The position numbers were made by a program, and so were the translations under genes. A stretch of DNA of 32,000 nucleotides, taken from Sinorhizobium meliloti. GTDB taxonomy: Bacteria > Pseudomonadota > Alphaproteobacteria > Rhizobiales > Rhizobiaceae. Shown piece after piece: positions 1,201-27,021 of the stretch. The notes beneath the pieces were generated by a model, which searched no databases, was not told where the DNA came from, and saw only the letters and a list, made by a program, of their open reading frames with translations. How positions within the stretch are numbered: position 1 is the first letter of the stretch; each line of letters begins with the position of its first letter. Location of the stretch: the NCBI RefSeq assembly GCF_017876815.1, contig NZ_JAGIOS010000001.1:3060001-3092000 (forward strand), given 5' to 3'.

Positions 1201-1374
1201 TAAGGCCTGTTGAGATTCATCTGGTGTTTATGACGGCTGCTGCGAGATCGGTGATGGCGTTTCTCCTGGCCCTCATCTCTGTGCTTGTCACAGAGATCCA
1301 GCAGCGCCGCGTCTGCGGCGCGGGAAATGTTTTTTCAGGCCAAGGACCTGGCCTGGCTGGATCCCTGTGACCAG
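1201..1374 (+). repeat. Repeat family A, copy A1, left part (interrupted by an IS at 1375)
   Basis: Begins with the terminal inverted repeat TAAGGCCTGTTGAGATTC. It contains hairpins ATCTCTGTG-N5-CACAGAGAT and GCGCCGC-GTCT-GCGGCGC, plus the left arm ATCCCTGTG and loop ACCAG of the last hairpin. Near-identical to 7707-7813 and 17641-17749. Confidence 0.9.
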
Positions 1375-2639
1375 TGTTTAGCCCGGGGACATGGCGGACA
1401 CCTGTTCGGATACATCACTGACGGATTGCTTGTTGGTCAAGTTGATTGTTGCGATGTGATGGGCACCGAAGAAAGCGCCATAGTGGCCGTCGCGGTCGAG
1501 CGGGCGGATGGCGAGGCGTTCTCCGCAGAAAGCTTTGGGAACTTTCCATAGCCGGCCTTTGAAGCTGACATAGGCTTTGGTGGCGGAAACCTTGCGCACG
1601 ATCTCGCCCTCGTCATAGACGGGCTCGGGCAGGCGATCCGGCATGGCGCGCGGACTGGGGTGGTAGCGGCTGGCCGGCACGTCATGATCGAGTGCCCCAT
1701 GCGGGCGCTCGAAATTGTAAAGCTCGCGCCAGGCATCGAAGGCGCGCTGAACGGCAGCAAGATCCCTGAAACGGTCAAAGGCGAACACCTCGGCCTTGAG
1801 TGTGCGATGGAAGCGTTCATTCTTGCCACGGCTCTGCGGATGGTAGGGGCGACTGTGCAGTAGGGCGACGCCGAGCTTCAGAAGCCATACGCCGAGGCCG
1901 GTCCAGCCCTCGCCTGACGGATCGCCCCATGGCGCGCCATTATCCACGAACATGGCGTCCGGCAGCCCGTAGCGCCGGAATGTCCGCTCCAGATGGCCGC
2001 GTACGGTCGCGCCTCGCTGATCGGCGCAGGCCATGAGACAAGGCACGAAGCGGGAATGGTCATCGATCACCGTCAACGGGTGGCAGAGCGTGGCGTCGGC
2101 CAATTGCACCCAGCCCTTGAAATCCATTTGCCAGAGCTGGTTCGGCGCCTCCTTCTCGAAGCGCTGCAACGCCGGCGCGCCGCCCGGCGGTGCTACGATC
2201 CGATCATGGCGCTTGAGGATGGCATGAACGGTCGAAACCGCCGGCGGGTGGGTTCCCTGCCGTTCCAGATAGCCCACAATTTTGCGCGCCCCCCATGCCG
2301 GATGCGCATCGCGCACCCCAAGCACCTCGGTCTCTACCGCTTCGTTGCAACGCATCGGACTTATATGCGGGCGCCGTGAGCGATCCGCCAACTCGCGGTC
2401 GCCGGCTTCCCACCGCGCCAGCCATTTATAACCGATATCCGGGCTGATCCCGAACCGCCGGCACAATTCCCGCCGGTTCACACCCTCCTCAAGCGCAAGT
2501 CGCACAAACTCCCGCCGCTCTCCCATCGTCGATACCTCTCGCCACGGCATGGAATACCCCCTTCGAAGCCAAATCCATGCCAGTATGACGTGTCAGCCAT
2601 CTCCCCGAACACCCGTCAGTTATGTCCCCGGGCTAAACA
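1375..2639 (-). mobile_element. Complete IS481-family insertion sequence (1265 bp)
   Basis: Perfect 18-bp terminal inverted repeats TGTTTAGCCCGGGGACAT (1375-1392 and the reverse complement of 2622-2639). A 5-bp direct duplication ACCAG flanks it (1370-1374 and 2640-2644). A single DDE transposase ORF fills the element and its stop codon lies inside the left IR. Confidence 0.93.
1378..2550 (-). CDS. IS481-family DDE transposase (integrase/rve core)
   Basis: N-terminal HTH (CRRFGISPDIGYKWLARW). rve catalytic signature: WQMDFKG, VIDDHSRF, DNGAPW, SRPYHPQSRGKNERFHRTLK. An alternative start is ATG at 2526 (MGERREF), which has a GAGAGG Shine-Dalgarno sequence. Confidence 0.92.
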   Translation of the reverse strand: MPWREVSTMGERREFVRLALEEGVNRRELCRRFGISPDIGYKWLARWEAGDRELADRSRRPHISPMRCNEAVETEVLGVRDAHPAWGARKIVGYLERQGTHPPAVSTVHAILKRHDRIVAPPGGAPALQRFEKEAPNQLWQMDFKGWVQLADATLCHPLTVIDDHSRFVPCLMACADQRGATVRGHLERTFRRYGLPDAMFVDNGAPWGDPSGEGWTGLGVWLLKLGVALLHSRPYHPQSRGKNERFHRTLKAEVFAFDRFRDLAAVQRAFDAWRELYNFERPHGALDHDVPASRYHPSPRAMPDRLPEPVYDEGEIVRKVSATKAYVSFKGRLWKVPKAFCGERLAIRPLDRDGHYGAFFGAHHIATINLTNKQSVSDVSEQVSAMSPG

Positions 2640-2705
2640 ACCAGCACAGGGATGAGGAGATCAAACAAGCCGCCCCGGGGGTATCCCGAATCTCAACGGA
2701 CCTTA
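2640..2705 (+). repeat. Repeat family A, copy A1, right part (after the IS)
   Basis: ACCAG (duplicated loop) + CACAGGGATGAGGAGATCAAACAAGCC...GAATCTCAACGGACCTTA. This aligns with the right ends of A2 (7809-7875) and A3 (17745-17802). Confidence 0.9.
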
Positions 2706-7553: not shown

Positions 7554-7574
7554 CGCCGTCGCGTCTCCGCGGCC

Positions 7575-7603
7575 CTCGTTCCTGTGCCTTTCACAGGAAC
7601 GAG
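7575..7603 (+). terminator. Stem-loop downstream of the RcnB-like gene (possible terminator, no T-tract)
   Basis: 12-bp perfect stem CTCGTTCCTGTG / CACAGGAACGAG with a 5-nt loop, 22 nt after the stop codon. No U-run follows. Confidence 0.4.
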
Positions 7604-7671
7604 GAGATTGGGAGGGGGTGGGTGTCACGGCAGCTGCCGTTTGCGCGTATGTAAGCCATCTTGCCGACTGC

Positions 7672-7875
7672 GCGGTCTGGGAAACATCTCTGAGGCCTGC
7701 AATCTCTCCTCACCCTCATCTCTGTGCTTGTTACAGAGATCCAGCAGCGCCGCGTCTGCGGCGCGGAGAACGTTCTTTCAGCCCAAGGACTTGGTCTGGC
7801 TGGATCCCTGTGACGAGCACAGGGATGAGGAGATCAAACAAGCCGCGGGGGTATTCCGGATCTTACAGGCCCTAG
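7672..7875 (+). repeat. Repeat family A, copy A2 (intact core, degenerate or partly deleted left terminus)
   Basis: The core 7700-7850 is near-identical to A3 and includes all four hairpins, with the uninterrupted loop ATCCCTGTG-ACGAG-CACAGGGAT. The right end is GGATCTTACAGGCCCTA. Confidence 0.85.
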
Positions 7876-7946
7876 CAAATGCTGGTCAAAAGAGCCCGAA
7901 CGCGCTTCAGGGCCGATCCAATCCATCAAATGCCGGGACTAAACAC

Positions 7947-8969
7947 TTAGCTCGCCGAAGAAAGGCATTCCTTCAGCGAGGCGCCGATGTTTTCCATCAT
8001 CTGGAAGTAGAGATCCGGTCCAGCCTCGAGGGTGCCGGCTTCCGGATCGAGCGTGCCGGATTTCGCCGGCGTGCCTTCTATGACGACGCTGACGAGCTTC
8101 GGTTCGAACTGCGGCTCGGCGAAGACGCAGGTCGCGCCCAATTCCTTGATCTTCGCGCGAATCTCGGAGAGCCGCTCGGCGCCGGGCAGCACCTCCGGGC
8201 TGACGGTGATCGAGCCGGCGACGCGCACCTGGTAGCGGTTTTCGAAATACTGATAGGCATCGTGGAAGACGACGAAAGGCTTGTCCTTGACGGCAGCCAC
8301 CGTCTCGGCGAGGCTCTTGTCGAGAGCGTCGATCCGCGCGTTGAACTTCTCCAGATTTGCCTTGTAGGCGGCGGCGTTGGCCGGATCGGCCGCGGCCAAG
8401 GTCTTCTCGATCTCGGTCGCCATGGCCTTGGCGTTCATCGGGTCGAGCCACATATGCATGTCGAACTCGCCCTCGGCATGATCGTGATCGTCATGCTTAT
8501 CGGCGTGCTCGGCACCCTCCGCTTCGCCGGCATGGGCATCGCCGTGATCCTCGTGCCCCTCGTGGCCCGCTTCCTCGCCATGGCCCTCTTCACCGTGATC
8601 GTGCCCCTCGAAGGCGCCGCCCTCGCGGAACTTCAGCTTCGCGAGCCCGGGAGCCTCGCCGAGTTCGACCACCTGGGCTCCTGTGCCGAGCGTATCAAGC
8701 GGCTTGTCGAGGAACGCCTCGAGGCCGGGTCCGACCCAGAACACGACCTTTGCCGCCTGCAGTGCCGCGGCGTTCGAAGGCTTCATGGTGTAGGTATGAG
8801 GGGAGGCGCCGCCCTCGACGATGAGCGAGGGCTCGCCGATGCCCTGCATGATCGAGGCGACCAGCGAATGGACCGGCTTGATCGAGACGACCACATTGGG
8901 CGCCGCCGCAAATGCGGGGGAGGCCAGGAGAAGCGTCGAGGCGAACAGGAGGGCAGTCGTCGATTTCAT
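7947..8969 (-). CDS. znuA: Zinc ABC transporter periplasmic binding protein ZnuA with a His/Asp/Glu-rich loop
   Basis: Signal peptide MKSTTALLFASTLLLASPAFAAAP. Cluster A-I binding-protein fold motifs are present. Long loop: HDHGEEGHGEEAGHEGHEDHGDAHAGEAEGAEHADKHDDHDH. GGAGAA RBS. Divergent from znuCB-zur. Confidence 0.92.
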   Translation of the reverse strand: MKSTTALLFASTLLLASPAFAAAPNVVVSIKPVHSLVASIMQGIGEPSLIVEGGASPHTYTMKPSNAAALQAAKVVFWVGPGLEAFLDKPLDTLGTGAQVVELGEAPGLAKLKFREGGAFEGHDHGEEGHGEEAGHEGHEDHGDAHAGEAEGAEHADKHDDHDHAEGEFDMHMWLDPMNAKAMATEIEKTLAAADPANAAAYKANLEKFNARIDALDKSLAETVAAVKDKPFVVFHDAYQYFENRYQVRVAGSITVSPEVLPGAERLSEIRAKIKELGATCVFAEPQFEPKLVSVVIEGTPAKSGTLDPEAGTLEAGPDLYFQMMENIGASLKECLSSAS

Positions 8970-12908: not shown

Positions 12909-13354
12909 CATAGCTCTCCCGTATTATTTTCTTATGTCCCTCTTTTGATGGGACCTTAAACATTCGATATTGGTTTTTGTGAGACGGACTAAAATATAAC
13001 CCCGCAAGATGAAGCCTTCACGACAGAAATCGGGCGGTTTGGCGAAGATTTCCGACTTATTTCGAGGCTGGACCGCGCGATTGCGAAGGTCGCATTCCCA
13101 TATTCGCGGATTAAATCTCGGGATCGGTTATATTAGCGGTTTCTTTGTTTTTCAAGCGGTCCGACTGGGTGCAGGCGAATATTGCGCCGCACAAGAATTG
13201 TATTACGAATACATGGGCCCCGACTGGAGGCGCCGAGCAATGATCCGCGCAGGAGGCGGAGGATCACGCCATTCGCCATTCGCCATCGTCACCGGCAGCC
13301 GCCAACGCAAAGGATCGATCACGTGTCGCGGTCGGTTGCTCGGGTTATCGTGAG

Positions 13355-13591
13355 CTAGTGCGCTTTAAGGCGCGCCTCCTCAGCGGCGGAAAGAAAGAGT
13401 CTGCGTGCTTCCTCGCAGGTACGGCGCCCGTCGATCGCGGCGCGGCACGCGCTGCGCGCGGCGACATAATAGGGGCCGCGATAAGGCCAATGGTCCGCGA
13501 GGCACCGGAGCGCATCGGACGGTCCCTTGACCATGCGCACGTCACCCCCGGTCATTCCAAGCTCGATGGGATTGCTCCACAAGACCTGCAT
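13355..13591 (-). CDS. DUF982 domain-containing protein
   Basis: 78 aa. The pattern W..PI......G..R.V.GPSDALRCL.DHWP...GP.Y..A...C..A..G....EEAR..F..AAEEA matches the rhizobial DUF982 family. Strong GGAGGAG RBS 4 nt upstream of the ATG. Confidence 0.75.
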   Translation of the reverse strand: MQVLWSNPIELGMTGGDVRMVKGPSDALRCLADHWPYRGPYYVAARSACRAAIDGRRTCEEARRLFLSAAEEARLKAH

Positions 13592-14300: not shown

Positions 14301-14398
14301 TAGAGCGGGATGAGGAGAAAAGTGTGCGGTTTTCCGTCCGCATCCCGCCCTAACTTCCTAGAGTCGATCACGTTCATGATGTCAGGTCGACCCGACCT
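14301..14398 (-). repeat. Repeat family B, copy B2 (inverted relative to B3, not associated with a family A element)
   Basis: The reverse complement aligns with 17485-17581. Shared features: hairpin AGGTCG-N3-CGACCT, CATGAACGTGATCG, and the long hairpin AGCGGGATG...CATCCCGC(T/C). Confidence 0.8.
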
Positions 14399-14433
14399 GA
14401 AATCATCGTGATTCAGCGACTATTGGTGCTGTG

Positions 14434-15186
14434 TCAGTCGCTCGAAGTGGAAGCCGGGGTTTCTCCACCGCCTGAGCCGGTATCCTGGCCGCCGCCGGAG
14501 CCGCTGTCCTGACCGCCGCCGGAGCCTTCGCCACCGCCGGAGCCGCTATCCTGGCCGCCGCCGGAGCCAGTGTCCTGACCGCCGCCGGAGCCTTCGCCGC
14601 CGCCGGAGCCGCTATCCTGGCCACCACCGGAGCCGCTGTCCTGACCGCCGCCAGAGCCGGTATCCTGACCGCCACCTGAGCCGCTGTCCTGACCGCCGCC
14701 GGAGCCTTCGCCGCCGCCGGAGCCGCTATCCTGGCCACCACCGGAGCCGGTGTCCTGACCGCCGCCAGAGCCGGTATCCTGACCGCCACCTGAGCCGCTG
14801 TCCTGACCGCCGCCGGAGCCTTCGCCGCCGCCGGAGCCGCTATCCTGGCCACCACCGGAGCCGGTGTCCTGACCGCCGCCAGAGCCGGTATCCTGACCGC
14901 CACCAGAGCCGGTATCCTGGCCGCCGCCGGAGCCTTCGCCGCCGCCGGAGCCGCTATCCTGACCGCCGCTGGAACCGGTATCCTGGCCGCCACCTGAGCC
15001 AGTCTCCTGACTTCCGCCTGGCGCGCTGCCGGCGTCGGCAACGACAAGGACGTCACCATGAGGACCGGCGAGCGCTGTACTCTGACGCAGGCCGTCATCG
15101 AACGACGCTAGTGAGGCAAATGGCGTGGCAACGACATAGGCGAGACCAAGCAATGAGCCGATGATAGTTTTTCCTGTTCTACGCAT
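14434..15186 (-). CDS. Secreted glycine-rich tandem-repeat protein, (GSGGGQD[ST])n with GGGEGS punctuation
   Basis: Signal peptide MRRTGKTIIGSLLGLAYVVATPFASLA. GGAAGGAAG RBS. About 190 aa consist only of G/S/Q/D/T/E repeats. This frame and strand were chosen because they are the only ones with a signal peptide and an RBS. Confidence 0.6.
   Translation of the reverse strand: MRRTGKTIIGSLLGLAYVVATPFASLASFDDGLRQSTALAGPHGDVLVVADAGSAPGGSQETGSGGGQDTGSSGGQDSGSGGGEGSGGGQDTGSGGGQDTGSGGGQDTGSGGGQDSGSGGGEGSGGGQDSGSGGGQDTGSGGGQDTGSGGGQDSGSGGGEGSGGGQDSGSGGGQDTGSGGGQDSGSGGGQDSGSGGGEGSGGGQDTGSGGGQDSGSGGGEGSGGGQDSGSGGGQDTGSGGGETPASTSSD
14461..15010 (-). repeat. Coding tandem repeat array: 24-nt units nested in 114-nt higher-order units
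   Basis: The marker GGAGCCTTCGCC recurs at 14521, 14587, 14701, 14815 and 14929 (spacings 66, 114, 114, 114 nt). The three 114-nt units are nearly identical. Confidence 0.9.
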
Positions 15187-17052: not shown

Positions 17053-17484
17053 GGAAGAAGTCCTTTTCCTTCAGTCTGTCTTTGCCGCAACCCTGCGCTT
17101 CAATATCACGCATCGGTTGCTTTAGGTAGTGTGTCCGCGCCCCCGGGAGGAAGCGAACGTGTCGTCTTCAGCGAAATGCGCTGAAAGGCGTCGAGTGGTC
17201 ACGATATCGGGGAAAAGACGTCTACGATGCCGCTTGCGGCAGTCCCGGCGTCAAGCCAGGCTCAAAGCGAAAGTCCAGTCTCCGGGATTGAAAACGCCCG
17301 AACAGAGATAGGATTGGCAGTATTCCGCGAAAAAGGCAAGGGGGAGTTCTTGCGACCTCGCACCTGCGGCGATGCCTTATGCCGAAGCGCCGGCGTGACC
17401 TCTCGGTGCCATCTGCCGCAGGACGAATGTCGTGGATTGCTTCGTTTGACCACATTTTCGTCCCGGCACTGGATCACGATGTTT

Positions 17485-17581
17485 TTAGGTCGGATCGACC
17501 TAGAAACATGAACGTGATCGATTCCAATAGTTTAAGCGGGATGCGGGCGGAAAATCGCACACACTTTTCCTCATCCCGCTC
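17485..17581 (+). repeat. Repeat family B, copy B3, directly abutting family A copy A3
   Basis: AGGTCGGATCGACCT hairpin, CATGAACGTGATCG, and the long hairpin AGCGGGATG-N29-CATCCCGCT. Homologous to the reverse complement of 14301-14398. Confidence 0.8.
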
Positions 17582-17802
17582 TAAGGTCTGTTGAGATTGA
17601 TCCTAGGAAACCTATCGGAGGACTGCAATCTCTCCTCCTCCTCATCTCTGTGCTCGTCACAGAGATCCAGCAGCGCCGCGTCTGCGGCGCGGGAAGAGTT
17701 CATTCAGCCCAAGGACTTGGTCTGGCTGGATCCCTGTGACGAGCACAGGGATGAGGAGATCGAACAAGCCGTGGCAGGTATCCCGAATCTCAACAGGCCT
17801 TA
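17582..17802 (+). repeat. Repeat family A, copy A3 (best preserved, 221 bp)
   Basis: Terminal inverted repeats TAAGGTCTGTTGAGATTG / GAATCTCAACAGGCCTTA (16 of 18 positions). Four internal hairpins: ATCTCTGTG-N5-CACAGAGAT; GCGCCGC-GTCT-GCGGCGC; CAGCCCAAG-GA-CTTGG(TCT)GGCTG; ATCCCTGTG-ACGAG-CACAGGGAT. Confidence 0.9.
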
Positions 17803-17883
17803 GGTTGAGCCTGCGCTCTCCCTACGGGCCTCGCGGGCTTGCTGCTGCCGCGGCGAACCGGTAGGTCTATACCGGAGACGAAT

Positions 17884-18501
17884 ATGCGAGTTGACGATGA
17901 GCAGGTGGCCGGCGTGATCGATCCCTATGCCCTCCTTGGAATTGAGCGCGACGCCGACGAACGGGCGGTCCGGACGGCCTACCGTCGGGCGGTGAAGACC
18001 GCGCATCCCGACCGCGGCGGTGATGCCGAGAAGTTCGGCAAGCTGCAGGCGGCCTACGACCTCCTGAAGGACCCAGTGCGCCGCAAAGTCTACGATGACA
18101 CCGGCTACGATCCGCAACTCGCCGACCCGAAAGACCTGAAGGGCCTGATGATGCTGGAGACGCTCGTCAACGATTTCATTCTCGACGAGCGCGAGCCCGG
18201 CAGTTTCGATCCGGTCGCGGCGATGCGGCGCAAGCTCTCCGACGACATCGTCAAGAACCGCTTCCACATTTTGGAACTGGAACGCCACCGCTCCCGCGTG
18301 CGCAAGCATCTCGACCGCCTCGGCCGGCGGCCCGAGACAGACGTGCTCGGCTCCATGCTGCGCGCCCGCAGCCAGTCGATCGCCGAGGCGATCAGGAATG
18401 CCGAAGCCCAGATCGAGGCGATCGAGCAGGCCTACACCATGCTCGAGGGATATTCCTACGAATTGGAAGCGGTGGAGGCGAAGGCGCGCGCGGCGGAGTA
18501 G
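17884..18501 (+). CDS. J-domain (DnaJ-like) protein, about 205 aa
   Basis: DPYALLGIERDADERAVRTAYRRAVKTAHPDRGGDAEKFGKLQAAYDLLKDPVRRKVYD is a complete J domain with the HPD motif. The C-terminal part is helical/coiled-coil. ATG 17884 has a GGAGA RBS; the upstream TTG at 17839 is less likely. Confidence 0.85.
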   Translation: MRVDDEQVAGVIDPYALLGIERDADERAVRTAYRRAVKTAHPDRGGDAEKFGKLQAAYDLLKDPVRRKVYDDTGYDPQLADPKDLKGLMMLETLVNDFILDEREPGSFDPVAAMRRKLSDDIVKNRFHILELERHRSRVRKHLDRLGRRPETDVLGSMLRARSQSIAEAIRNAEAQIEAIEQAYTMLEGYSYELEAVEAKARAAE

Positions 18502-18770: not shown

Positions 18771-19364
18771 TTAATCCTGATTACCTTTGAGGCCGCCATC
18801 TTGGCTGCCTTTGCCGTTGTCCTGGTTGCCGTTGTCCTGGCTGCCCTTGCCGTTGTCCTGGCTGCCTTTGCCGTTATCCTGGCTGCCCTTGCCATTGTCC
18901 TGGCTGCCCTTGCCGTTGTCCTGGTTGCCCTTGCCATGGTCTTGGTTACCCTTGCCGGTGTCTTGGCCACCGCCACCGCCGGGATCGCCGCCGCCGCCGC
19001 CGCCGCCACCGCCGCCACCGCCGCCACCGCCGCCGCCGCCACCGCCGCCGGGATTACCACCGCCGCCGTCATCGCCGTTCAGGTTGCGAGGACCGCTGTC
19101 GGTGGAGGTCGTGGAAAACGAATTTCCGATGGCCGCCGTGGAGAGGGGCGGGCATTGCTCTATTTGCCCGGCCGTGAGGATATCCGCTCTGTTCTGAGCC
19201 ATGCAGCATGCTTCGTAATTGGCGTCCGTCAGAGGGCTGCACTGCTCAGCCACGAGCATGGGGCCCGTAAGGTTCTGGGCGTGCGCGGGAATCGTTGTCG
19301 AAGTTGAAAAACCGACCATCAGAGCCAGGCCGGTGCTCGTAAGAAATACATCCAGGGTTTTCAT
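18771..19364 (-). CDS. Secreted protein with a Cys-containing N-domain, a poly-Gly tract and GKG[SN]QDN heptad repeats
   Basis: Signal peptide MKTLDVFLTSTGLALMVGFSTSTTIPAHA. GGAGA RBS. Four Cys in the first 45 mature residues. A Gly-dominated stretch (about 35 Gly, broken only by N, P, D and P) leads into GGGGGQDTG, followed by (GKGSQDN)n. Confidence 0.6.
   Translation of the reverse strand: MKTLDVFLTSTGLALMVGFSTSTTIPAHAQNLTGPMLVAEQCSPLTDANYEACCMAQNRADILTAGQIEQCPPLSTAAIGNSFSTTSTDSGPRNLNGDDGGGGNPGGGGGGGGGGGGGGGGGGGGGDPGGGGGQDTGKGNQDHGKGNQDNGKGSQDNGKGSQDNGKGSQDNGKGSQDNGNQDNGKGSQDGGLKGNQD
18801..19070 (-). repeat. Coding 21-nt tandem repeats (18801-18965) followed by a (GCC/ACC)n triplet tract (18966-19070)
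   Basis: Units such as GGCTGCCCTTGCCGTTGTCCT repeat about 8 times. An almost pure CCG/CCA triplet run encoding poly-Gly on the minus strand follows. Confidence 0.9.
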
Positions 19365-26466: not shown

Positions 26467-27021
26467 GTGTTGCCTTTCAAGCGTTTCATCATGAAGTCTG
26501 CCGCCATCTTCCTGGCCGCCGCCGGCTTCCTTTCTGCCTGTACCGTGGTCGTCGACGAACCGCGCCCCGGTCCGGGGCCGATCCGCCCGCCAGGCCCGCA
26601 AATGTGCACGATGGAATTCGCGCCGGTCTGCGGCGAGCGCGGCAATCGCATGCGGACCTTCCCCAATGCCTGCCAGGCACGCGCCGACGGCTTCCGTGTC
26701 GTTCATCGCGGCGAATGCCGCCCGGCATCCCGTCCGCCGGAAGAACAGGCCTGCACGCGCGAGTTTTCGCCGGTGTGCGGTCAGCGCGGCCCGAGAAGGC
26801 AGACCTTCCCCAATTCATGCGTGGCGCGCGCCGAGGGTTTTCGCGTCGTCGCACCCGGCGAATGCCGCCGCGAGGATGATCGCCCGCAGCAGCCGCAATT
26901 CTGCACCCGGGAATTCGCGCCGGTCTGCGGCGAGCGCAACGGACGATCAAGAACATTCCCGAATGCCTGCGAGGCACGGGCGGACGGGTTCCGCGTGGCT
27001 CATCCCGGGGAATGCCGTTAA
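26467..27021 (+). CDS. Lipoprotein with three tandem Kazal-like serine-protease-inhibitor domains
   Basis: Lipobox FLSAC. Three ~50-aa repeats of the form C-T-[MR]-E-F-x-P-V-C-G-x(8)-F-P-N-x-C-x-A-R-A-x-G-F-R-V-x(5)-C-R. GTG 26467 has a GGGGGAG RBS; an alternative ATG at 26491 lacks an RBS. Confidence 0.8.
   Translation: MLPFKRFIMKSAAIFLAAAGFLSACTVVVDEPRPGPGPIRPPGPQMCTMEFAPVCGERGNRMRTFPNACQARADGFRVVHRGECRPASRPPEEQACTREFSPVCGQRGPRRQTFPNSCVARAEGFRVVAPGECRREDDRPQQPQFCTREFAPVCGERNGRSRTFPNACEARADGFRVAHPGECR

Follow-up and report, generated by a model that had tools for sequence, protein, structure and literature searches.

An Sm-4 repeat of Sinorhizobium meliloti as a probable chimera of IS427-type insertion sequence ends and a four-hairpin core

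The Correia elements of Neisseria (CREE) are abundant non-coding units of 100–150 bp that carry terminal inverted repeats (TIRs), duplicate a TA dinucleotide, are co-transcribed with their neighbours and fold into long hairpins; the processing of CREE by RNase III and their creation of promoters are also known. The ERIC/IRU sequences of enterobacteria are imperfect palindromes of ~125 bp that lie in transcribed intergenic regions, in either orientation, and carry insertions at defined internal sites. We know of no parent insertion sequence (IS) for ERIC. In Brucella, the ~100-bp palindromic alphaproteobacterial repeats Bru-RS1 and Bru-RS2 are hot spots for a single IS, IS711, and the rhizobial intergenic mosaic elements RIME1 and RIME2 were reportedly described by Osteras et al. 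in 1995. Here we analyze a 221-bp element at positions 17582–17802 of a 32,000-nt stretch of the S. meliloti genome (contig NZ_JAGIOS010000001.1, positions 3,060,001–3,092,000 of the forward strand; ‘the window’). The element is one copy of the annotated, and as such already known, Sm-4 repeat of S. meliloti, which occurs three times in the window (copies 1–3, numbered by position). Our results indicate that Sm-4 is probably a non-autonomous transposable element in which the two ends of an IS enclose a core of four hairpins. Taken on its own, the identification of Sm-4 as a MITE (miniature inverted-repeat transposable element) can be made with high confidence.

Sm-4 resembles CREE in its TIRs, TA duplication, abundance, hairpin folding and co-transcription. 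The two have no sequence relation, and Sm-4 is set apart by a parent IS family that can be identified and by a cargo core of four hairpins. With the REP/BIME sequences of enterobacteria and pseudomonads it shares the features of an extragenic palindrome that is enriched between convergent genes, found in 3′ untranslated region transcripts and hit by an IS at a fixed position on its axis (Tobes and Pareja 2006, PMC1525189). The Sm-4 core is, however, a ~120-nt array of four hairpins, whereas REP is a single hairpin of 20–40 nt, and Sm-4 has no GTAG/CGTC tag. The core lacks the structural hallmarks of REP/REPIN, and no RAYT turned up, though RAYT genes were not searched for. The resemblance to REP/REPIN lies in behavior only: the core is extragenic, enriched downstream of genes, indifferent to orientation and the target of a dedicated IS. 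ERIC/IRU and Sm-4 are unrelated in sequence and in taxon. Bru-RS is likened to Sm-4 by description, and the exact 22-mer scan presented below returned no Brucella.

The Sm-4 class is said to go back to the Capela/Galibert genome annotation of 2001. The window corresponds to the reverse strand of the S. meliloti 1021 (Sm1021) chromosome, where the Sm1021 coordinate equals 2078394 minus the window coordinate; an S. meliloti chromosome matches the window at 98.5% identity. The offset is fixed by znuA (SMc04245, 2069425–2070447; window 8969–7947), using the coordinates in Table S1 of Schlueter et al. (2010), and by the cold-shock gene SMc04234 (2061342–2061554; window 17052–16840). It was verified by an exact-protein look-up of the transposase of ISRm20, an IS that interrupts copy 1: this protein is encoded at 2075844–2077016 of AL591688.1, as predicted. 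Because these three genes fix the offset, SMc04504, listed as an Sm-4 repeat at 2070519–2070689 on the plus strand (Table S3, Schlueter et al. 2010, PMC2873474), falls at window 7875–7705 and matches copy 2 base for base. This direct annotation match concerns copy 2 only; copies 1 and 3 belong to Sm-4 by homology to copy 2 along the length of the repeat, with 88–91% identity to copy 2 and 85–91% among the three. An early placement of copy 3 at Sm1021 1.5297 Mb, where the same REP-REP-Sm-4 spacing is annotated (1529620–1529943), was ruled out by the flanking genes. As far as we searched, the literature gives no origin or mechanism for the annotated Sm-4 class, and searches on rhizobial MITEs returned nothing relevant. 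Our analysis contributes the recognition of the ends as IS427-type, of TA/CTAG as the target and of the core as pan-Rhizobiaceae, together with the specificity of ISRm20.

A first-pass annotation of the window had compared the architecture of the element to that of RIME or of a MITE. RIME and Sm-4 are both mosaic, intergenic, palindromic and Rhizobiaceae-specific, and two of the Sm-4 copies adjoin RIME/REP-type hairpins. The annotation of strain 2011, however, counts 209 RIME apart from 73 Sm-4 copies (Sallet et al. 2013, PMC3738161), and copy 2 carries the Sm-4 label (PMC2873474), so the family is not assigned to RIME. The double hairpin that adjoins copy 3 at 17469–17581 also has no sequence in common with the core. 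Membership in RIME1/RIME2 is accordingly very improbable, where the separation is drawn from annotation class and the adjacent unit and not from a published consensus. For annotation purposes, the element is best masked as Sm-4 and not as a small RNA (sRNA) or open reading frame (ORF), its ends marking it as an IS427-type MITE.

In copy 3, the target CTAG is split into CTA and TAG, with the duplicated TA at 17582–17583 on the left and at 17801–17802 on the right. The left TIR (AGGTCTGTTGAGATT, 17584–17598, plus strand) matches the IS5/IS427-group termini GGGCTTGTTGAGATT and AGGCCTGTTGAGATT, and the right TIR (AATCTCAACAGGCCT, 17786–17800, minus strand) likewise matches IS termini. Between them lie, all on the plus strand, a left subterminal module (GATCCTAGGAAACCTATCGGAGGACTGCAATCTCTCC..., 17599–17637) that we term type I because it is unlike the type II module of copy 1, the palindromic core (17638–17757), and a right subterminal module (ATCGAACAAGCCG...GGTATCCCG, 17759–17785) with homology to the end of the IS that lies on the orfA side. 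The core was delimited by folding, covariation and a covariance model. It contains the hairpins H1 (17646–17664, loop 17653–17657), H2 (17673–17690), H3 (17706–17723) and H4 (17732–17750), the last of which presents the ISRm20 target in its loop (ACGAG, 17739–17743). Two closing helices join these elements: ATCCAGC/GCTGGAT (17665–17671/17725–17731) encloses H2 and H3, and CCTCAT/ATGAGG (17640–17645/17751–17756) encloses the whole.

Reading and alignment of the regions show that all three copies share the core CTCATCTCTGTGCTYGTYACAGAGATCCAGCAGCGCCGCGTCTGCGGCGCGG...CAGCCCAAGGACTTGGYCTGGCTGGATCCCTGTGACSAGCACAGGGATGAGGAG. Copy 3 is 88.5% identical to copy 2 over 200 nt, and 89% and 85% identical to the two halves of copy 1. 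Copy 2 (7672–7875, plus strand; core 7712–7831) has lost ~15 nt of its left terminus, and its right terminus (7858–7872) is degenerate. Copy 1 is split at 1374/2640 by the 1265-bp ISRm20 insertion (1375–2639). Its left part (1201–1374, plus strand) contains the TA, the TIR (1203–1217), a type II left module that extends to 1261, H1–H3 of the core and the 5′ half of H4; its right part (2640–2705, plus strand) has the other ACCAG and the remaining, 3′ half of H4 together with the right module, the TIR (2689–2703) and the TA. Both TIRs (AGGTCTGTTGAGATT and AATCTCAACAGGCCT) are present in copies 1 and 3 only, and the inverted termini proposed in the first-pass annotation hold for these two copies and fail for copy 2. 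The segment between left terminus and core varies between copies, comprising at least two types of left module, and the core also occurs with other shells or with none, in keeping with the mosaic structure that had been suggested.

With a covariance model derived from 58 cores at other loci, the window yields these three cores and no others, at 17638–17757 (134 bits), 7712–7831 (131 bits) and 1269–1395 (97 bits, interrupted by the IS), besides a solo hairpin described below; this confirms the three copies of the first-pass annotation. The family corresponds to D4, D7 and D10 of the repeat finder, which also gives a 34-nt arm-to-arm inverted repeat (I5) within copy 3. Four consecutive stem-loops, as originally proposed, are recovered on folding: the minimum free energy of the 221 nt is −125.9 kcal/mol, compared with −74.5 ± 5.2 for shuffled sequences (z = −9.9), and the complementary strand folds equally well (z = −10.9). 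The element is small (221 bp), and its sole internal ORF (17591–17803) is an artefact of high GC content. Core length ranges from 116 to 121 nt with differences that are not multiples of 3, which excludes a coding function of the core.

The ends of Sm-4 are those of an IS. The termini read (A/G)GGYCTGTTGAGATTC; TA precedes 13 of the 16 distinct ends, and for 10 of these the preceding sequence is CTA. By BLAST, the left 64 nt of copy 1 match places annotated as ‘IS5 family transposase’ in Rhizobium, Mesorhizobium and Bradyrhizobium. The matched ISs are ~830 bp long and contain an orfA with DUF4096 and an orfB with DDE_Tnp_1 (Pfam), which is typical of the IS427 group. Their termini are GGGGCTGTTGAGAATC and GGGCTTGTTGAGATTC, and intact ISs sit in CTAG with TA on either side, as Sm-4 does. 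Homology of the type II left module of copy 1 to the IS covers the first ~62 nt of the latter, with 79–81% identity to intact ISs of R. leguminosarum and Mesorhizobium (one alignment spans 59 nt at 81%). Over 67 nt, copy 1 shares 94% identity with an IS end on pSymB of S. meliloti ml47, and the two diverge exactly where the core starts. The right module (ATCAAACAAGCCG...GGTATCCCGAATCTCAAC..., ~45 nt) aligns with the other IS end, with matches in S. meliloti Rm41 pSymA, Mesorhizobium and R. leguminosarum. Since both ends are homologous to the IS, Sm-4 is built as left IS end, core and right IS end, with the core in the place of the transposase genes. Copy 3 shares the termini and right module with copy 1, and IS homology beyond the left terminus was seen for type II (copy 1) only. 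An IS630-like reading of the TA/CTAG signature was dropped after the left module was found by BLAST to match IS5-family/IS427-group ends. An IS427-type transposase would act in trans on the Sm-4 termini, and Sm-4 copies would spread in this way.

Comparison with Sinorhizobium sp. C101, which is collinear with the window at ~94% identity, provides empty and filled orthologous sites. The window is empty at 13350–13360 (GAGC-TA-GTGCG), and the equivalent of position 13356 is filled in C101 (GAGC-TA-AGGCCTGTTGAGATTC ... GAATCTCAACAGGCCC-TA-GTGCG) by a 540-bp unit with two cores that is bounded by termini and flanked by the duplicated TA. This is one clean reciprocal site. The block at 17471–17800, comprising the RIME-type double hairpin and copy 3, is missing from C101, where the site reads GGCAC-TA-GGTTGAG, and the C101 ortholog of copy 2 retains only H4 and the right end. 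Together, the IS-homologous ends, the TA within CTAG and the empty and filled sites uphold the MITE architecture that had been offered alongside RIME. The copies also behave as an independent repeat: they are dispersed, their flanks are unrelated and orthologous sites are empty. A larger segmental duplication, of which the copies would be pieces, could draw only on the ~25 nt shared to the left of copies 1 and 3; given the unrelated flanks, the empty sites and the dispersal of hundreds of copies over all replicons and many genera, we regard it as refuted.

The family extends far beyond the window. A search with the 221-bp copy returned 1636 places, spread over 160 rhizobial records of plasmids, chromids or chromosomes (the plasmid collection searched also includes some mislabelled chromosomes), far more than chance or local duplication would give and excluding the idea that these three are the only copies. 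The matches lie in Sinorhizobium, Rhizobium, Agrobacterium, Neorhizobium and Ensifer; pSymB of strain 1021 has ~21 of the places, and chromosomes have at least 40. At 73 copies in 6.7 Mb, 0.35 Sm-4 elements are expected in 32 kb, and the three seen represent a local excess (Poisson P ~0.005), in line with the high density remarked on at the outset. The exact 22-mer GATCCAGCAGCGCCGCGTCTGC was found in 98 stretches of species-representative genomes from Rhizobium, Ensifer/Sinorhizobium, Neorhizobium, Pararhizobium, Mycoplana, Agrobacterium, Ferirhizobium and Aliirhizobium. With no S. meliloti locus among them, these stretches indicate taxonomic range and not copy number per genome, and copy numbers are taken from the published count and the plasmid-collection places. 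The 22-mer is also present in metagenome-assembled genomes of Solirubrobacterales/Actinomycetota, in a conserved and apparently protein-coding context that has no hairpins; these matches are coincidental and not family members.

In most genera, the core lacks the Sm-4 termini. It begins with CCTCATCC and includes a near-invariant 29-nt sequence (GATCCAGCAGCGCCGCGTCTGCGGCGCGG) across genera. In several Ensifer, the same core is enclosed by an unlike inverted repeat, ACACGACAGTAGC...GCTACTGTCGTGT, which suggests a second, unrelated shell.

The hairpins of the core are supported by covariation among 58 distinct cores. In the four-hairpin model, 97.0% of cells are paired, compared with 35–41% when partners are slid by 1–3 columns, where selection of the cores by the exact 22-mer forces invariance in H2 and in one strand of a closing helix. 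Changes on both sides are seen in 13 pairs, versus 6.7 ± 1.2 in shuffles (0 of 500 reach 13) and 2–8 in the slid controls. As judged from this alignment, the stems are preserved by compensatory substitutions. The H1 and H4 stems switch as units between CCTGTG/CACAGG, CTCTGTG/CACAGAG, CCGGCC/GGCCGG and CTCGCC/GGCGGG, and the H3 stem alternates between GCCCAAGGACTTGGGC and CGCGAAGGACTTCGCG; copies within a genome are related and not independent, and the switching amounts to a handful of independent events. A single long arm-to-arm helix pairs less well than the local hairpins do and has a C·A mismatch at one position in 53 of the 58 cores. The loops of H1 and H4 are complementary to each other and change in concert (UA 24, CG 12), and an extended arm-to-arm conformer is possible. 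The core stems contain 23 G-U cells and 28 A-C cells, numbers that are nearly equal and therefore favor neither strand as RNA.

The position of the element with respect to genes is biased. The first-pass annotation placed all three copies at gene ends. Copies 1 and 2 lie between convergent gene ends; copy 3 departs from this pattern in lying between divergent genes, in the promoter region between csp (17052–16840, minus strand) and a J-domain gene (17884–18501, plus strand). Across the loci examined, 37 cores are in convergent, 45 in co-directional and 7 in divergent contexts, versus 72, 172 and 94 for a background made up of those intergenic regions of the same loci that have no element and measure at least 50 bp (chi-square p = 9e-6; odds ratio 0.22 for divergent and 2.6 for convergent contexts). 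Context was scored by a crude GC3-based gene caller (using GC content at third codon positions), which mis-called the znuC/znuB region of the window, so these statistics are approximate. The family is found mainly downstream of genes. In co-directional contexts there is no orientation bias, with 25 cores in the same and 20 in the opposite orientation.

Transcription of the element is documented at copy 2. SmelC856 is a 138-nt transcript at 2070552–2070690 (Schlueter et al. 2010, PMC2873474), which corresponds to window 7842–7704 on the minus strand and covers the core of copy 2 downstream of znuA. Other Sm-4 copies give transcripts on both strands (PMC2873474), and Sm repeats have been described as highly transcribed (PMC3738161); no transcript is given for copies 1 and 3 in the published listing. 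The first-pass annotation had suggested terminators, RNA-stability elements and protein-binding sites as possible roles. No T-run terminator was found within copies 2 or 3, the core is followed by purine-rich sequence, and lacking a T-tract Sm-4 is not a classical terminator. Readthrough from an upstream gene would produce a fold of −126 kcal/mol that would block 3′ exonucleases or be processed. By analogy with REP and ERIC, such a fold would leave a stable fragment and perhaps stabilize or end the upstream mRNA in either orientation. The location bias and the stable transcript are compatible with a role at RNA 3′ ends, and no essential host function is implied for Sm-4.

The same transcript could come from a dedicated sRNA gene, or a cis-regulatory RNA, with its own promoter. 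The 138-nt product over the core of copy 2 and the high transcription of Sm repeats (PMC3738161) would fit this idea, as would a sigma-70-like match upstream of the transcript at 7889–7860 on the minus strand (1 match versus 0.0 ± 0.2 in shuffles). A search of Rfam 15 across the whole window, however, gave 0 matches at the gathering threshold, and raising E to 10 added only microRNA-precursor artefacts. The core also shows neither orientation bias relative to genes nor wobble asymmetry, other Sm-4 copies are transcribed on both strands, and copies 1 and 3 have no listed transcript. A dedicated RNA gene is on balance improbable. The sigma-70-like match is directed towards copy 2, whose degenerate terminus contains its −10 hexamer, and SmelC856 starts at 7842. 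A segment of ~75 nt (window 7876–7947) that separates the right end of copy 2 (…CAGGCCC TA G) from a second TA-GCTCGCCG has no equivalent in C101; the segment closes with GCCGGGACTAAACAC, a sequence that is similar to the ISRm20 terminus CCCGGGCTAAACA and may be what is left of an IS end.

The insertion in copy 1 reveals a second IS with a close relationship to the core. ISRm20 (IS481 family, 1265 bp; 1375–2639, minus strand) encodes a transposase (2550–1378) with LZ_Tnp_IS481 and rve domains, has the ends TGTTTAGCCCGGGGACA and lies in the loop of H4, flanked by a 5-bp duplication of ACCAG (the first at 1370–1374). At all eight independent sites examined (8/8), ISRm20 lies in an Sm-4 core, within the 5-nt loop of its CCCTGTG/CACAGGG hairpin, and both orientations are seen. 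In every case the flanks read CCCTGTG, then CTSGT or ACSAG, the IS, the same 5 nt again and CACAGGG. The IS copies at the other sites are 99.9–100% identical to that in the window. Strain Ak57 has ISRm20 in the equivalent loop of copy 3 and an uninterrupted copy 1, and in strain AK21 the IS is in another Sm-4 copy on pSymB. The exact transposase occurs at ten places that represent five loci: downstream of rpsA, between mazG and hflX, near a GIY-YIG gene, on pSymB, and at dctM/dctP. A degenerate relative of ISRm20 is found in such a loop, in the opposite orientation, near 73.5 kb on pSymB of strain 1021. ISRm20 integrates exclusively into this 5-nt hairpin loop. Comparable pairings of an IS with a palindrome are known for IS1397, ISPpu9/10 and the S. 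meliloti elements ISRm22/ISRm19 (Tobes and Pareja 2006, PMC1525189). ISRm20 is absent from the REP-targeting ISs of that study, and in the literature searched we found no description of its loop specificity and no biological paper that mentions it. Insertions of ISRm20 are predictable, being confined to one 5-nt hairpin loop, and are useful as strain markers.

Other insertions are seen in the core. In some species the H1 loop carries a 12-nt sequence (CCGGGCTAAGCA) that resembles a leftover ISRm20-type end, and in some it carries a nested hairpin (CCTCGGGCTTGACCCGAGG). The hairpin loops of the core appear to be general insertion hot spots. The mazG-hflX intergenic region of S. meliloti and another region contain arrays of up to eight Sm-4-type cores, ~225 bp apart, one of them with ISRm20.

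The precision with which the DDE transposase of ISRm20 hits the hairpin axis argues that the DNA is recognizable as a symmetric site. The core might act at the DNA level as a structural or protein-binding site, similar to BIME with IHF, gyrase and Pol I: its palindromic arms would bind a dimeric host protein or form a cruciform and would affect supercoiling between convergent genes. The symmetric Watson-Crick pairing (23 G-U versus 28 A-C cells), the palindromic nature of each arm and the enrichment in convergent intergenic regions would all suit such a site. It has no known binding protein, however, and the local hairpins covary, which a duplex-DNA site would not need; we regard a DNA-level site as rather unlikely.

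Purely selfish DNA is a more serious possibility, though one that we put at somewhat below even. The element would then have no host function, the hairpins would be kept only because a mobilization machinery recognizes them, and the downstream location would reflect purifying selection against insertion into promoters and genes. Presence/absence polymorphism, decay products (the truncated C101 ortholog, the lost terminus of copy 2 and the IS-interrupted cores), the lack of strand or orientation bias, the depletion of divergent regions, and arrays of seven or more cores in one intergenic region are all as expected of selfish DNA. This account leaves the near-invariant 29-nt sequence unexplained, however, and no hairpin-recognizing transposase has been identified. 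The identity of copy 3 in most strains also runs counter to it, though this may reflect no more than recent common ancestry. Neither the selfish reading nor the DNA-site reading conflicts with the identity of Sm-4 as a MITE.

Several points weigh against our reading of Sm-4 as an IS427-type MITE whose core may act at RNA 3′ ends, in addition to the sampling of the cores and the gene caller noted above. With regard to origin, we could trace no IS counterpart beyond the terminus for the type I left module in copy 3; S. meliloti yielded only partial IS copies, with no intact donor demonstrated in strain 1021; and mobilization of Sm-4 in trans by an IS transposase is inferred from sequence. Copy 3 shows no presence/absence polymorphism among 11 S. 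meliloti strains (its intergenic region is identical in 8 of 10 strains and differs at 1 and 79 positions in the remaining two), and being fixed it leaves recent activity unproven. The RNA role draws on one transcript from a published table; with no T-run, no G-U/A-C asymmetry and no orientation bias, the data also fit a DNA-level or purely selfish element. Transposition of the IS427 type explains neither the compensatory conservation of the core hairpins nor the spread of the core in genera that lack Sm-4 termini. The core might be an independent, selectively maintained module of Rhizobiaceae, carried as cargo by at least two unrelated shells (IS427-type in the S. meliloti group and ACACGACAGTAGC...GCTACTGTCGTGT in other Ensifer). 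It would be spread or kept by a hairpin-recognizing system or a conserved host role (mRNA 3′-end protection or processing, or nucleoid structuring), and the H4-type loop would serve as the landing pad of ISRm20. We consider such a module conceivable but doubtful, and retain the MITE with IS427-type ends as the probable identity of Sm-4.

Copies 1 and 3 adjoin a separate double-hairpin unit of the RIME/REP type, which lies at 17469–17581 on the plus strand, with an inverted copy at 14301–14416 and a partial copy at 1170–1200. The unit is ~113 bp long and forms two hairpins of about 56 and 55 nt; its copies are 84–85% identical, and it probably represents the RIME/‘REP’ features of the Sm1021 annotation. 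It ends in ...CCCGCTC (CCCGCTCTA), followed by the TA at 17582–17583. With a following G, this end would form CTAG and would serve as a target for Sm-4, which would account for the adjacency of Sm-4 and for mosaic clusters. Intergenic regions would on this model be built up stepwise: a RIME-type hairpin with CTAG at its end receives a MITE specific for CTAG/TA, and this MITE in turn receives an IS specific for the hairpin loop.

The window contains further repeats. A solo hairpin (CTCGTTCCTGTGCCTTTCACAGGAACGAG, 7575–7603), located just past the stop codon of an RcnB-family gene and upstream of copy 2, is like H1/H4 of the core and is matched by the covariance model at 7572–7605 (23 bits, E = 0.0015); it may be a short Sm repeat. 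At 14398–15081, an in-frame, GC-rich tandem array with sub-periods of 24 and 18 nt and a super-period of 114 nt lies in an ORF on the minus strand (14403–15098), and the matching gene of strain Ak57 is annotated as ‘hypothetical protein’. Tandem repeats of 21 and 9 nt occupy 18790–19086 within another minus-strand ORF (18771–19364); their number is polymorphic, since across S. meliloti strains the product of the corresponding gene ranges in length between 182 and 204 aa. Three direct repeats of ~118 nt, spaced by 147–150 nt and 75–77% identical, are found at 26605–27019, a region that is annotated in strain Ak57 as encoding a hypothetical or extensin-family protein.

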